Assembly: GCA_024277315.1 (NCBI GenBank)
Contig: JAJRVK010000073.1
Location: 1-34,238 of the forward strand
Length of the DNA: 34,238 nt
Direction of reading: 5' to 3'
DNA from: an archaeon
Lineage (GTDB): Archaea > Thermoplasmatota > Thermoplasmata > WALJ01
Below the pieces are notes generated by a model. That model saw only the letters and a list, made by a program, of their open reading frames with translations. It was not told where the DNA came from and searched no databases. Within the stretch, counting starts at the first letter, position 1. Each line of letters opens with the position of its first letter. This document shows positions 109 through 30,631 of this stretch, piece by piece. The position numbers and the translations under genes are program-made.

Positions 109-1647
109 TCAGTGCTTGAACACCCTGTGTCCGGTGAATACCATTGCCATACCGTATTCGTTCGCGGCCTTTATGACATCCTCGTCCCTTATTGAGCCGC
201 CGGGATGAATCACAGCTGTAATCCCGGCCTTTGCAGCCTCATCTATCCCGTCCCTGAACGGGAAAAACGCATCGGAGGACATCACCGCTCCTTTTGCCTT
301 TTCTCCCGCTTTGAAAGAGGCAATTTTCACGGCATCCACCCTGCTCATCTGGCCGGCACCTATACCCACTGTTGTTTTATTTTTTGCAAATACTATGCTG
401 TTGGATTTCACATGCTTAGTTACCTTCCACGCGAATATCATATCTCTCAGTTCCTCTTTCGTCGGCTCTCTTTCCGTAACGACCTTCAATTTAGAGGGAT
501 CGAGCCTCGATATGTCCCTGTCCTGTGCAAGCATTCCGCCGACCACCTTTCTGTAGTCCATAGAGGGCTTAGGGGGCCCCAGCGGGCCTGTCTCCATGAT
601 TCTCAGGTTCTTTCTCTTCATCAGCCTTTCAAGTGCCTTTTCCTCATAGGACGGAGCGATTATGACCTCGAGAAAGATTCCTTTCAGGTCCTTCACTATA
701 TCATATTTAACCTCCCGGTTGAGTGCGAGTATCCCGCCGTACGCGGACATGGGGTCGGCATCCATGCCTCTTCTGAAAGCAGTATATATGTCGTCCGCAG
801 ACGAAACTCCGCAGGGGTTCGTATGTTTTATCGCAGCAACTGTCGGCTCATCGAAGTCCTTTATGAGTTCCAGGGCATCGTTGGTGTCCAGTATATTGTT
901 GTAGGAGAGCGCTTTTCCGTGTAGCTGTCTTGCACTCGCTATGCAGGGTTCCGTTATATCGAGTTCTCTGTAAAATGCCGCTTCCTGTTCCTTGTTCTCG
1001 CCGTATCTCAGATCCTGGACCTTCAGATAATGCAGGAAAAGATGAGGAGGGAATTTCAGACCCGTGAATCTCCGGGAAAGCGTGGAATATATCGTGGAAT
1101 CGTATGCTGCGGTGTGGGCAAACGCCTCGAGAGCCAGTTCTCTTCTCATCTCCTGTGGAACATCGCCTTCCTCGACCAGCGCCTCGATAACTTCATCGTA
1201 TCTCGAAGGATTTGAGACCACAACCACATTCTCGTGGTTCTTCGCAGCGCTCCTTATCAGAGTTGGCCCGCCTATGTCTATGTTCTCTATCAGATCCTCG
1301 ATGCTGGCATCCTCCTCTCTTGCCACTCTTTCAAATGGATAAAGGTTCACGACAACCATATCTATAGGCTCTATTCCCTGTTCCTTTATCTGCTTCATAT
1401 GGTCCTCGTTGCGGAGAGCGAGAATTCCTCCGTGGATAACGGGATGCAGGGTTTTGACCCTTCCGTCAAGCATTTCGGGAAAACCGGTTATCTCCTCCAC
1501 CCTTTTAACAGGTATGCCCGCATCCTCCATGGCCCTTGCCGTTCCGCCTGTTGATATTATCTCTATTCCGAGTCCATGGAGGTTCTTTGCCAGATTCACT
1601 ATTCCTGCTTTGTCCGACACACTGAGGAGCGCTCTTCTTATCTTCAA
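109..1647 (-). CDS. purH: Bifunctional AICAR formyltransferase / IMP cyclohydrolase
   Basis: 512-aa ORF. N-terminal MGS-like region (ALLSVSDKAGIV...ISTGGTA...KTLHPVIHGGILA) followed by a full-length AICARFT-type C-terminal part. Confidence 0.93.
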   Translation of the reverse strand: MKIRRALLSVSDKAGIVNLAKNLHGLGIEIISTGGTARAMEDAGIPVKRVEEITGFPEMLDGRVKTLHPVIHGGILALRNEDHMKQIKEQGIEPIDMVVVNLYPFERVAREEDASIEDLIENIDIGGPTLIRSAAKNHENVVVVSNPSRYDEVIEALVEEGDVPQEMRRELALEAFAHTAAYDSTIYSTLSRRFTGLKFPPHLFLHYLKVQDLRYGENKEQEAAFYRELDITEPCIASARQLHGKALSYNNILDTNDALELIKDFDEPTVAAIKHTNPCGVSSADDIYTAFRRGMDADPMSAYGGILALNREVKYDIVKDLKGIFLEVIIAPSYEEKALERLMKRKNLRIMETGPLGPPKPSMDYRKVVGGMLAQDRDISRLDPSKLKVVTEREPTKEELRDMIFAWKVTKHVKSNSIVFAKNKTTVGIGAGQMSRVDAVKIASFKAGEKAKGAVMSSDAFFPFRDGIDEAAKAGITAVIHPGGSIRDEDVIKAANEYGMAMVFTGHRVFKH

Positions 1648-27621: not shown

Positions 27622-27662
27622 CAATCCCAAAACTAATTTAAACCATGTGTATATGGGCATTC

Positions 27663-28175
27663 ATGACCGTCGCAGAAAGAACAGTAAGGCCGGAACTGGA
27701 CGAGTACTTCATGATGATGGCAGTTCTCGTGGCATCACGTTCCACATGCATAAGGAGAAAGGTCGGAGCCGTAATAGTCAAGGACAAAAGGGTGCTCAGC
27801 ACGGGATACAACGGACCGCCGAAAGGAATGAAGCACTGCGATGAAACGGGCTGTCTCAGGGAAAAACTGAATGTCCCGTCCGGACAAAGACACGAGCTGT
27901 GCAGAGGATTGCATGCTGAGCAGAATGCAGTGATACAGGCGGCGGTCTTCGGTACGAGCATAGAGGGTGCCGCCATATACGTAACCAATCACCCGTGCAG
28001 TGTCTGTACGAAGATACTGATAAATGCCGGAATAAAGGAGATAGTTTACGGAGAGTACTATCACGACGAGCTTGCCGAGCAGATTCTGGCGGAATCTGGT
28101 GTGAAGGTAAGACAGTTCAAGGCACCGGAGTGGAGGGACTTTGAGAAATACCTCGCTGGGCTGCACGGGTTCTAA
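27663..28175 (+). CDS. dCMP deaminase (ComEB/CMP-dCMP deaminase zinc-binding family)
   Basis: [23 protein letters not shown] and PCSVCTK zinc motifs. The ATG at 27663 is 25 nt after AATTTAAA (27631-27638). The ORF track starts at 27645. Confidence 0.85.
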
Positions 28176-28176
28176 C

Positions 28177-28641
28177 TTATCCTCTTATGCACCTTCCAAT
28201 ATTTAACGATTTTTTAACATGTCTAATATACACTTCCATATCTCCAAGTTTTTTCTTTATATCTTCGCTTTTAGGTATTGGCGCAGATCCATGACTTATA
28301 ATGATTGCAATCCAAATAAAATTAACGTTATGTGCCTTGTTTATTATTTTTTTCTTAGTCTCTACTATTTGCTCAACAGCATCATTTATCATGTTTCCTT
28401 TTATTTCGACCAGCCCTATTCTGGTATCTGTCTTTTTATAATACACCAATAAATCACAAACGCGCCCTCCTCCAGATTTTTGATTAAATTTACAGTCTTT
28501 ATTTTTTTGATTATCTATGCTGAAAAACTCTACAGTTTCTCCAGTTTGAACATCCATCGTAACAACAATTTTTTCCTTAAACCGAGTTTTAGGAATCAAG
28601 CAGCCATCCAGAAGTTCGCCTAAAAAGTATGTTAAAGACAC
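28177..28641 (-). CDS. 154-aa protein with a PD-(D/E)xK-like nuclease motif (hypothetical)
   Basis: GTG start, 4 nt after the SD AAGGTGGT, which directly follows the upstream TAA. Motif ...GGGRVCD63LLVYYKKTDTRIGLVE79IK81G (D-x15-E-x-K) sits in a beta-strand-like context. I recognise no named family. Confidence 0.6.
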   Translation of the reverse strand: MSLTYFLGELLDGCLIPKTRFKEKIVVTMDVQTGETVEFFSIDNQKNKDCKFNQKSGGGRVCDLLVYYKKTDTRIGLVEIKGNMINDAVEQIVETKKKIINKAHNVNFIWIAIIISHGSAPIPKSEDIKKKLGDMEVYIRHVKKSLNIGRCIRG

Positions 28642-28652
28642 ACTACCACCTT

Positions 28653-29972
28653 TTAAATTTTAAAATAGATATCGGATATTCTATCACTTATTTTCGAAAA
28701 AGTCTCCCAGTTTATCGTGATTTCTTTTCTATCAAGTATATCTTTAACTTTTCCTTCTTTGGTAAACTCATATACTGCAACTTTGTTGGGTGAAATGAAA
28801 GCTTTCTTGTCTTTTAAGAAGAACAGTTCCTGTATTTCTTCTTTCTTTTTAGATTTTGATGCGGCCATGAGATTAATTAGGTGATCTACAATGTAGGGGG
28901 TATGGGTTGTTATTATAAAGTGTGCGCCATCGTTTACAAGCATGGAGATAAATTCCATGAATTTTACTTGGGCCTCTGGATGGAGATTCATTGCAGGTTC
29001 ATCTATGATGAATAATTTGTTTTTATAGCCATAATTCCTTATATAAAGATAAAATATGGATAAAGCCTTTACTAATGAAGATGTCGCATGAATCTTCAGA
29101 TTTCCATCTTTAAAATAATATTTGATTTCGTTTCCTAAATCTCCCTTTTCAGTATCTATCTCTCCAGATAGTATTTCTTTCTCGAATATATCTATAAGCT
29201 TTTTCTTCTTTGTGGAAGAGTCAAAATTTTTCAAATCACCGACTAAACTGATATAATCCCTGATTGGCTTAGGATATTTGGGTATCTTTTCTTTATTTAT
29301 ATCTATATTTTTAAAATATCTATAAACTAGTAAATCACTCATATATGAAAGAGAAGTTCTCTCCGAAGGAAATATCTTAATATCTTTATATATCGATGTA
29401 TGAATCTCTGCTATTATGAGAAAATCTAAGAAAAATGCAGCAGCTTTCTTATTTTTAGAACCGCACAAGATGATTTTAAAGGAATCTTTAACTTTTTTTA
29501 ACTTTTTGCTTGTAAGGGGATCTATGCGCATCATAGTGTCGGATTCAAAAGTTATTCTTTTTTCTTCCCTAAAAAAGTTTTCTTTGACTTTGGTATTGAG
29601 GTTAGTAATATGGACTTTTGCACCTTTCTTCTCTTTATCTAAAAACATGAAATTATTAAAATACAATTCAAAATTATCAGAGATATATTTTTCAAAATCA
29701 AGTTTTTCAAAAACTTTTTCAGCATTAATACTAAAACAACCTTCTTCCTCTTCTATCAATTCTTTATCAAAATAATCAGTATATTTTTTATAATTATATT
29801 CATTTATAAATTCTTTTAGCATTTCAAAAGATGCTGCTACAGAATAAGCAGCCCACGTTTTCCCCGTATTGTTTGGACCTATGAATATTGTGAGAGGCTT
29901 TAATTCAATTTCTGCCTCTTTTATAGGACCAAGATTGGATATCGAAATTTTAAGGTCTTTTCTTTTACCCAT
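28653..29972 (-). CDS. ABC/SMC-like AAA ATPase (AAA_15/AAA_21, COG1106-like class)
   Basis: 439-aa ORF. N-terminal ISNLGPIKEAEIELKPLTIFIGPNNTGKTW (Walker A GPNNTGKT, nt 29856-29879). A long low-complexity insertion. Signature-like HATSSLVKAL. Walker B/D-loop KLFIIDEPAMNLHPEAQ (nt ~28981-29020). H-loop FIITTHTPYIV. Confidence 0.85.
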   Translation of the reverse strand: MGKRKDLKISISNLGPIKEAEIELKPLTIFIGPNNTGKTWAAYSVAASFEMLKEFINEYNYKKYTDYFDKELIEEEEGCFSINAEKVFEKLDFEKYISDNFELYFNNFMFLDKEKKGAKVHITNLNTKVKENFFREEKRITFESDTMMRIDPLTSKKLKKVKDSFKIILCGSKNKKAAAFFLDFLIIAEIHTSIYKDIKIFPSERTSLSYMSDLLVYRYFKNIDINKEKIPKYPKPIRDYISLVGDLKNFDSSTKKKKLIDIFEKEILSGEIDTEKGDLGNEIKYYFKDGNLKIHATSSLVKALSIFYLYIRNYGYKNKLFIIDEPAMNLHPEAQVKFMEFISMLVNDGAHFIITTHTPYIVDHLINLMAASKSKKKEEIQELFFLKDKKAFISPNKVAVYEFTKEGKVKDILDRKEITINWETFSKISDRISDIYFKI

Positions 29973-29995
29973 GAATGCGCATAAGGTTTATTACC

Positions 29996-30002
29996 TATAT
30001 AT
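29996..30002 (-). promoter_or_regulatory. TATA-like box for the island operon (leaderless-type spacing)
   Basis: The minus strand reads ATATATA GGTAATAAACCTTATGCGCATTC ATG. The box ends 23 nt upstream of the ATPase start codon and no SD is present. Confidence 0.35.
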
Positions 30003-30145
30003 CACTTTTTCAAGTTATGTCTCTTAGTCTTCACCCAGGAGATGATTCTTCGCAATCGATTTCTAAACCCAAAAAAATCGAAAATAAATGTCATTTTACT
30101 TTTAAATCTCCTATAATCCGCTTCTTTTTTCCCATTCTTCTGGCT

Positions 30146-30631
30146 ATGCCTATTGCATATCTCATCCTTTTCTCACCGAATTTTCCGGCCTATGCAGCCA
30201 CAGTCGGCACCTTTTTTTTCGCCTTCGGAACCGGTGAGATATCGGCCATAATCGTGGGCACGGCTCTCGGACTTAATCCGTTCCTGCCCGCGCTCCTAGT
30301 CGCATTCATAGAATCTGATATGTCCCTTTTCATAGCATGGAACTTCGATTACCTGAAAAGAATCCCCAAACTCGGACCTCTAATAGAAAAATACGAGAAA
30401 AAGGCAGAAGATATCCTGTCCGGCCGAAAAGCGCTCCTAGGTGCAGAATTCGCCCTCATATTCTTCATGATGTTCATACCATTTCATGGTACGGGCGCCG
30501 TAACAATGACCATTGCGGGAAGGATTCTGGCTCTGGGTGAAAACAGGACTTGGTTGGCGGTCACCCTCGGAACTCTGACCCGCTCTCTTTTAGTGGCATC
30601 ATTGATTTATCTCGGTCTTCTGACCTTCTGA
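30146..30631 (+). CDS. Small multi-pass membrane protein of unknown function
   Basis: Hydrophobic from MPIAYLILFSPNFPAYAATVGTFFFAFGTGEISAIIVGTALGL... onward, with host-like GC. The ORF-track start at 29975 would add 57 AT-rich codons from the island, so the ATG at 30146 is preferred. Confidence 0.6.
   Translation: MPIAYLILFSPNFPAYAATVGTFFFAFGTGEISAIIVGTALGLNPFLPALLVAFIESDMSLFIAWNFDYLKRIPKLGPLIEKYEKKAEDILSGRKALLGAEFALIFFMMFIPFHGTGAVTMTIAGRILALGENRTWLAVTLGTLTRSLLVASLIYLGLLTF

Follow-up and report, generated by a model that had tools for sequence, protein, structure and literature searches.

The window analysed here, a stretch of 34,238 nucleotides (nt) covering contig JAJRVK010000073.1, carries on its minus strand two adjacent, co-oriented genes, of which gene A (28653–29972, ATG start) encodes a 439-amino-acid (aa) ATP-binding cassette (ABC) ATPase of the OLD/PtuA class and gene B (28177–28641, GTG start) encodes a 154-aa protein with a restriction-endonuclease-like predicted fold. 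We propose, with a probability of roughly 0.7, that the pair forms a two-gene operon of the anti-virus systems that combine an OLD-type ABC ATPase, here the presumed sensor or regulator, with a small PD-(D/E)xK protein, here the presumed effector. Known examples of this class are PD-T4-4 and WonAB, and the PADLOC candidates PDC-M29 and PDC-M47 are of the same type. The pair is almost certainly an anti-virus module, and appears to be a divergent, probably archaeal member of this known design rather than a new system.

The gene A product is an OLD/Septu-class ABC ATPase in which all catalytic motifs are intact. Pfam places it in AAA_15 (E = 9.7e-22) and AAA_21 (E = 5.5e-11), and the best PADLOC model is PD-T4-4_A (PDLC04033, E = 8e-47), which the window protein spans from end to end (residues 8–430 against model positions 2–445 of 460). 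The next models are PDC-M47A (4e-31) and AriA (1e-24), followed by NsnB, PDC-M29A, PtuA, Old and GajA, and both PD-T4-4_A and PDC-M47A are matched by each of the 50 homologues in the alignment from which all ATPase conservation figures are taken. The AlphaFold2 model of the ATPase (predicted local distance difference test (pLDDT) 84.6, predicted template modelling score (pTM) 0.88) finds PtuA, from Septu and retron-Septu complexes, SMC heads and Rad50 as its top Foldseek matches (E ~1e-8, probability 1.0), while the closest solved structure by sequence is a weak match to the OLD-family enzyme 6p74 (2.6e-6). The class assignment follows from these Pfam, defence-profile, Foldseek and solved-structure matches, and agrees with a preliminary description of this DNA that had grouped the ATPase with those of Septu, PARIS, Gabija and OLD.

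The ATPase motifs quoted in that description are all present and conserved across the homologues. Within the Walker A motif (29856–29879) G32, N34 and K38 are invariant, and G37 and T39 are conserved in at least 90% of the sequences. An FPxER element follows, with R205 invariant and P202 and E204 at or above the same level, and then the signature SSLVKAL (29061–29081; SSxVK in the family), in which S298 and S299 are invariant and K302 is kept in at least 90%. The Walker B motif and D-loop (28968–29012) contribute the invariant residues I323, D324 and E325 together with L330, H331 and P332, and the H-loop (28896–28913) contributes T355 and H357, both likewise invariant. As a separate observation, a 303-aa ATPase of the same family is encoded on the viral contig IMGVR_UViG_3300019122_000810 (1671–2579, plus strand; PD-T4-4_A, E = 3.4e-48), where the whole insert region (family-profile positions about 40–240) and the small partner are both missing and the gene lies directly upstream of that for a 1627-aa tape-measure-like protein; possible explanations are a truncated copy carried by a phage, a moron, or a protein acting as a decoy or in anti-defence.

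The product of gene B belongs to a family with little presence in reference collections. No Pfam, NCBIfam or PHROG family was recovered for it in profile searches, and a word-index homologue search returned the protein itself only. Sub-threshold Pfam matches to GHKL, DUF4252 and Imm39 are absent from its relatives, and we rejected them as indications of its identity. Searched exhaustively with phmmer, a set of 1.84 billion cluster representatives yielded at least 117 relatives (E ≤ 1e-3); of the matches listed, almost all are 110–190 aa long. Across an alignment of 97 of these relatives, D63 (28453–28455, minus strand) and E79 (28405–28407) are invariant and K81 (28399–28401) is conserved in at least 90%, such that the D63-x15-E79-x-K81 motif picked out previously is a genuine family feature. 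Conservation of at least 90% extends to E35, F40, D43, C62, A88, Q91 and R153, whereas position 76, which is Cys in at least 90% of the relatives, is Gly in the window protein.

The AlphaFold2 model built on the 97-relative alignment is confident (pLDDT 94.3, pTM 0.90) and comprises strands at residues 36–41, 64–69 and 73–81, a helix at 85–102 and a further strand at 109–116. In the model, D63 opens strand 64–69, E79-x-K81 closes strand 73–81 and Q91 lies within helix 85–102. This predicted order of elements fits the alpha-beta-beta-beta-alpha-beta core of the PD-(D/E)xK superfamily, in which the Asp begins the second core strand and the (D/E)xK falls in the third. Faint Pfam matches to HSDR_N, HSDR_N_2 and DUF2726, which we take to be PD-(D/E)xK families, were obtained for four of the 97 members. 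A nuclease fold for the small protein is well supported by its motif and predicted topology.

Family-level PADLOC matches and alignment of the conserved core with hhalign suggest that the small protein is a distant relative of PD-T4-4_B, PDC-M29B and PDC-M47B, one that the PD-T4-4_B models do not recognise. On its own, the window protein reaches a single PADLOC model, PDC-M29B, and does so weakly (2.5e-4). Among the 97 relatives, PDC-M29B is matched by 46 (best 5.8e-8), PDC-M47B by nine and PD-T4-4_B by eight (best 1.6e-5). For comparison we used genuine PD-T4-4 pairs confirmed with PADLOC, namely two metagenomic loci, L011 and L012 (A, 7e-84 and 6e-96; B, 3e-11 and 7e-11), and three from enterobacterial plasmids, L027–L029 (A up to 1e-262, B up to 3e-108). 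The B proteins of these verified pairs share a CD...(D/E)xK...Q arrangement, for example CDLVLI...IFDQK...QL, and hhalign of the window family against genuine PD-T4-4_B gave probabilities of 81.7% (E = 1.1e-5, 43 columns) and 67.7% (E = 4.9e-5, 96 columns), pairing CD with CD, ExK with (D/E)xK and Q with Q. In the reverse direction, the L011 B protein matches the hidden Markov model of the window family with an E-value of 6.4e-5, obtained against a small local database.

The two genes travel together, in the order A then B, in archaea and in bacteria. Our co-occurrence sample comprises eight distinct loci, the window and L001, L003, L008, L009, L021, L023 and L025, and in each of the seven besides the window, which include archaeal and bacterial examples, the small gene lies 8–22 nt downstream of a strong family ATPase; six of these seven spacers contain a Shine-Dalgarno sequence of the GGAG/AGGA type. 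Starting from the ATPase, four homologues (P0003, P0004, P0017 and P0028, with 61%, 38% and about 33% identity) are each followed after 8–14 nt by a gene for a 153–172-aa protein that matches the small-protein family strongly (1e-40 to 6e-56). Starting from four homologues of the small protein, the ATPase is found immediately upstream in three. A scan of metagenome contigs with the ATPase alignment added three loci to those considered, and one of genome contigs with the single ATPase gave two ABC matches of no relevance. Across the other family loci and the verified PD-T4-4 pairs, the genes are separated by 1–22 nt or overlap. Pairwise identities of the A and B proteins are correlated (r = 0.74), as calculated from 21 locus pairs that are not independent of one another. 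The distribution of the pair is patchy, taking in Chloroflexota, Cyanobacteria, Armatimonadota and archaea.

In the window, the sequence confirms the coordinates of both genes and the 11-nt gap between them (28642–28652, minus strand), as described previously. The junction reads AAA ATT TAA, then AAGGTGGTAGT, then the GTG start codon of gene B, with the Shine-Dalgarno-like sequence AAGGTGGT placed immediately 3' of the TAA; the short gap and the Shine-Dalgarno sequence suggest that the two genes may be translationally coupled.

Some loci depart from the intact arrangement. At L023 and L024, which represent two assemblies, the ATPase gene (L023 4507–5978, L024 287–1758) is split by a frameshift into open reading frames (ORFs) of 266 and 224 aa that overlap by 4 nt, and the small gene is intact. 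At L022 (63–1158) the ATPase is in at least four frameshifted pieces, again beside an intact small gene, and the contig L021 from the same sample carries an intact version. An intact small gene beside a broken ATPase fits a toxicity that depends on the ATPase, and not a toxin-antitoxin arrangement, although assembly error is possible. At L026, the fourth of the small-protein homologues used as starting points (846–1328, plus strand), the 845 nt of upstream sequence contain no ATPase gene; the neighbour there is encoded on the other strand and the contig ends nearby. This small gene may be an orphan effector.

Of the studied systems, PD-T4-4, identified in E. coli by Vassallo et al. (2022), is likewise composed of an OLD-type ABC ATPase and a small PD-(D/E)xK partner (PMC9519451; PMC10952713; bioRxiv 10.1101/2025.07.10.664194). 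It shares with the window pair two tightly spaced, co-oriented genes with the ATPase first, an ATPase that matches PD-T4-4_A over its full length, and the alignable CD...(D/E)xK...Q core of the small protein. The two differ in several respects: the small protein is 154 aa long here and 180–210 aa in PD-T4-4_B, the PD-T4-4_B model reaches some of its relatives but not the window protein directly, and the window ATPase is ~29–32% identical, in its C-terminal half, to the E. coli and Klebsiella plasmid versions. Moreover, the window locus is chromosomal and its host probably archaeal, whereas canonical PD-T4-4 resides on an element resembling an integrative and conjugative element, and the pairs with strong matches are on plasmids.

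These plasmids are E. coli pCUVM53-4 (4.5 kb; L027), Klebsiella plasmid P4 (7.9 kb; L028) and an IncX4 plasmid of E. marmotae (L029), so that the carriers of canonical PD-T4-4 include very small ColE1/Rop-type plasmids as well as a conjugative IncX4 plasmid. The genes on them are annotated merely as 'AAA family ATPase' and 'hypothetical protein', and the ATPase of L028 appears as two overlapping ORFs. We note that the introduction of bioRxiv 10.64898/2026.07.10.737580 gives the PD-T4-4 effector as an HNH nuclease; we set this label aside, as it is contradicted by three other papers, which give PD-(D/E)xK, and by the CD...DQK motif of verified PD-T4-4_B proteins.

WonAB was described in 2025 from the prophage-borne locus of Vibrio cholerae WASA-1 and is mainly reported in Gram-negative bacteria (PMC12137116; WonA, AWB73975.1; WonB, AWB73976.1). 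Its ATPase has the Walker A Lys, an Arg in the Q-loop region, the signature, the Walker B Glu, the D-loop and the H-loop His, as does that of the window, and WonA residues K34, R182, E300 and H333 would correspond to K38, R205, E325 and H357 here, a correspondence drawn by motif type and not from a sequence alignment. Both ATPases bear a conserved C-terminal extension, and both partners are variant PD-(D/E)xK proteins of ~16 kDa with a conserved Lys, which is K71 in WonB, where it is essential, and K81 in the window protein. Translation arrest and the lability of WonB to Lon, on the other hand, are features described for WonAB.

The PADLOC candidates PDC-M29 and PDC-M47 are, to our knowledge, predicted systems that have not been characterised experimentally, and our literature search found no paper mentioning either. 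PDC-M29B is the sole defence model for the window small protein and PDC-M47A is matched by every ATPase relative; the PDC-M29A match of the window ATPase, however, is partial (1.5e-15, in two stretches) and far weaker than those to PD-T4-4_A and PDC-M47A. Since the best models for the two components differ, no single catalogued system is indicated. With Septu, PARIS, Gabija and OLD the window pair shares the ABC ATPase clade, as judged from the AriA, PtuA, GajA and Old models and from PtuA as top structural match, and the logic of a sensor joined to a nuclease. The nuclease components are distinct: PtuB of Septu is an HNH nuclease, and neither Pfam nor PADLOC gave an HNH or PtuB match for the window small protein, while PARIS, Gabija and OLD employ a Toprim (DUF4435) nuclease, for which neither window protein has a Pfam or PADLOC match. 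The exclusion of HNH and Toprim partners in the preliminary description is thereby borne out, and the genes adjoining the pair, for a deoxycytidine monophosphate (dCMP) deaminase and a membrane protein, are likewise not Toprim.

The same description had suggested that the pairing might be undescribed. This claim fails because the architecture has been published and the ATPase matches PD-T4-4_A over its full length: it has appeared as PD-T4-4, as WonAB and, in the account of Krishnan et al. (2020) given in PMC12137116, as an 'OLD-ABC ATPase + novel REase' (restriction endonuclease) operon reported in 0.96% of bacterial genomes. By profile matches also, the small-protein family is tied to the PDC-M29B, PDC-M47B and PD-T4-4_B families, the window protein's own link being remote.

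By analogy with these systems, the ATPase would dimerise head-to-head around ATP and hold or gate the small nuclease, for which its conserved C-terminal extension may provide the docking surface, as in WonA. A virus-derived cue, possibly read through the variable insert region, would switch the complex on, and the activated nuclease would then halt the infection while sacrificing the cell (abortive infection), conceivably by arresting translation. In WonAB, defence is lost upon mutation of the ATPase (K34A, R182A, E300A or H333A) or of the nuclease (K71A), the toxicity of WonB requires active WonA, and WonB has been modelled docked on the C-terminal extensions of dimerised WonA (PMC12137116). 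WonAB defence is abortive, with genomic DNA remaining intact while translation stops (PMC12137116). PD-T4-4 forms higher-order complexes, and EcPD-T4-4, once purified, left all 11 DNA substrates uncut, leading its authors to suggest that a viral cue may be needed or that the target may be RNA or tRNA (bioRxiv 10.1101/2025.07.10.664194). Because WonAB arrests translation, PD-T4-4 cut no DNA that was offered to it, and OLD, PARIS and retron-Septu, all with an ATPase of the same clade, cleave tRNA, we consider the target no less likely to be an RNA of the translation machinery than DNA.

The same findings bear on an alternative in which the two proteins act as a restriction-like DNase directly on invading DNA, with the ATPase serving as a DNA sensor or clamp in the manner of Gabija, Rad50-Mre11 and classical OLD, and the cell survives. 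PD-(D/E)xK enzymes are mostly DNases, several nuclease-NTPase systems with PD-(D/E)xK effectors are reported in the literature to degrade DNA in vitro, and the weak Foldseek neighbours of the small protein include the DNA nucleases Mus81, PaqCI, NucS/EndoMS, MspJI and Can2. However, EcPD-T4-4 is among the closest studied relatives of the window pair, and its inactivity on DNA, together with the intact genomes and blocked translation of WonAB-expressing cells and the tRNA cleavage by the other members of the clade, argues otherwise, and we regard direct DNA restriction as unlikely.

Several observations weigh against an assignment of the window pair to the PD-T4-4/WonAB class. The model of the small protein has no significant match in Foldseek (best E 0.028 in PDB and 3e-3 in BFVD, TM-scores ≤ 0.43), and searching PDB sequences with the profile of its family gave no meaningful match. 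For this reason the nuclease-fold reading rests on the motif, the topology and the remote profile links; the nuclease-like fold anticipated earlier is accordingly upheld by a confident model with the strand order of restriction endonucleases, and not by structural similarity searches. Many of the marginal Foldseek matches are PD-(D/E)xK proteins, comprising Mus81-Eme1, PaqCI, Card1/Can2, NucS/EndoMS, R.BspD6I, MspJI and Avs4 as well as herpesvirus UL24 and phage restriction endonucleases, and small GTPases such as Arf are likewise among them. In addition, the window small protein matches no PD-T4-4_B model at E ≤ 1 in PADLOC. Most loci stand among housekeeping genes and not in defence islands; among the examined loci of the small-protein family, the exception is L023, in whose vicinity there are genes for a restriction-modification-like methyltransferase and a Cas4-like protein. 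A true PD-T4-4 locus, L012, adjoins a large helicase-methyltransferase.

Finally, the pair is long resident in its chromosome and not a recent mobile acquisition. The islet that was remarked upon previously for its low guanine-plus-cytosine (GC) content, consisting of the gene pair and a 44-nt upstream spacer (28177–30016), has a GC fraction of 0.302 compared with 0.498 for the rest of the window, and the pair is 6–19 GC points below its flanks in nine of nine loci examined, whatever the GC content of the host (the loci named for this comparison are the eight of the co-occurrence sample and the PD-T4-4 loci L011 and L012). In L001, which derives from another assembly, the pair has the same neighbours and the same junctions as in the window, namely a single nucleotide between the convergent stop codons of gene B and the deaminase gene (28176 in the window, 3244 in L001) and 44 nt to the divergent Sm_multidrug_ex gene (29973–30016 and 1391–1434, respectively). 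Amino-acid identities between the two contigs are 86% for the deaminase, 62% for the membrane protein, 61% for the ATPase and 48% for the small protein. As the shared insertion matches to the nucleotide, it predates the split of the window and L001 lineages, and since the pair has retained ~30% GC in both, its composition has not been ameliorated despite this long residence.

These features of the locus are also relevant to an interpretation of the pair as a selfish addiction cassette of the toxin-antitoxin type, in which a nuclease toxin is checked by the ATPase and the genes are kept by post-segregational killing. A compact two-gene operon in low-GC DNA would suit such a cassette, as would the presence of canonical PD-T4-4 pairs on tiny ColE1-type plasmids, the solitary small gene at L026, the broken ATPases next to intact small genes at L022 and L023/L024, and the toxicity of overproduced WonB. 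Yet toxicity in WonAB depends on the ATPase instead of being neutralised by it, which speaks against simple sequestration. An intact toxin gene beside a disrupted antitoxin would be lethal although such loci exist, and the window locus lies in a chromosome, with synteny kept in two lineages; an addiction cassette therefore seems improbable.

A housekeeping pair for DNA repair or RNA processing, comparable to Rad50-Mre11/SbcCD and with no role in immunity, would account for the position of the genes between housekeeping genes with essentially no spacer, for their retention as orthologues, together with a conserved promoter-like element, in two archaeal genomes, and for Rad50 and SMC heads among the structural neighbours of the ATPase. 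We consider this very improbable, as the ATPase has no long coiled-coil insert, the pair is spread patchily across Chloroflexota, Cyanobacteria, Armatimonadota and archaea with a GC content always below that of the host, defence models account for all of the nearest profile matches, and the ATPase is pseudogenised in some genomes. That the pair is an inactive remnant of horizontally acquired genes, as AT-rich foreign DNA and relatives with frameshifted ATPases might suggest, has hardly any probability given that both ORFs are intact in DNA of 30% GC, where stop codons are frequent, that the catalytic residues are all kept, and that the L001 orthologues (61% and 48% identity) preserve both ORFs, the Shine-Dalgarno spacer and the promoter-like block.

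Returning to the window pair as a divergent member of the PD-T4-4/WonAB class, no new principle is involved, as the combination of a sensor ATPase with a small restriction-fold effector has already been published and tested in E. coli and Vibrio. What is new is a divergent, uncurated effector subfamily, its probable archaeal hosts and its residence in a long-established chromosomal islet. The subfamily is missed by Pfam and NCBIfam and marginally reached by defence models, and could be added to PADLOC or DefenseFinder; moreover, the compact 154-aa effector would be useful for asking what nucleases of the PD-T4-4/WonAB type cut. There is a small chance that the small-protein family constitutes a distinct, unnamed branch of ABC-ATPase/mini-nuclease systems centred on Chloroflexota, Cyanobacteria and archaea, which PD-T4-4 models would probably miss. 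If so, it may be the first of these systems shown to act in archaea, or the host may have co-opted it for a function of its own, for example a stress-triggered shut-off of translation. It would stand apart from the mobile bacterial versions in being a lone, long-resident chromosomal islet, inserted at the same point in two archaeal lineages, that has stayed at 30% GC and has a conserved candidate promoter of archaeal type.

Upstream of gene A, the 44-nt spacer contains a 15-nt block, AAAAGTGATATATAG (29995–30009, minus strand), that the window and the orthologous L001 share letter for letter, amid spacer sequence that otherwise differs. The TATA-like part of AAAAGTGATATATAG is centred ~27 nt upstream of the ATG of gene A, and the block is a candidate archaeal promoter with a B recognition element (BRE) and TATA box, from which a leaderless or near-leaderless operon transcript may be made. 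A 14-nt inverted repeat (27652–27665/29970–29983, 93% complementary) was rejected as a flanking repeat, since we estimate that about one such repeat is expected per 3.5 kb by chance; it overlaps the start regions of the dCMP deaminase and ATPase genes.

The window contains no tRNA gene, and neither flanking repeats nor an integrase gene were found next to the pair. The metabolic genes around it encode AICAR transformylase, pyruvate:ferredoxin oxidoreductase, P-type ATPases, a pseudouridine synthase and the dCMP deaminase. The window also has a gene for a disaggregatase-repeat protein, a type associated with Methanosarcina-like archaea, and the neighbours of the pair at L003 are archaeal; these two features and the BRE/TATA-like block are the grounds on which the host is judged to be probably archaeal. 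The islet is flanked by the dCMP deaminase gene (27645–28175, plus strand) on one side and by the gene for the Sm_multidrug_ex membrane protein (about 30017–30631, plus strand) on the other. As listed, the Sm_multidrug_ex ORF extends from 29975 to 30631 on the plus strand and would begin 2 nt from the start codon of the ATPase on the opposite strand; the 204-aa orthologue in L001 suggests that its true start is near 30017, at Met15.

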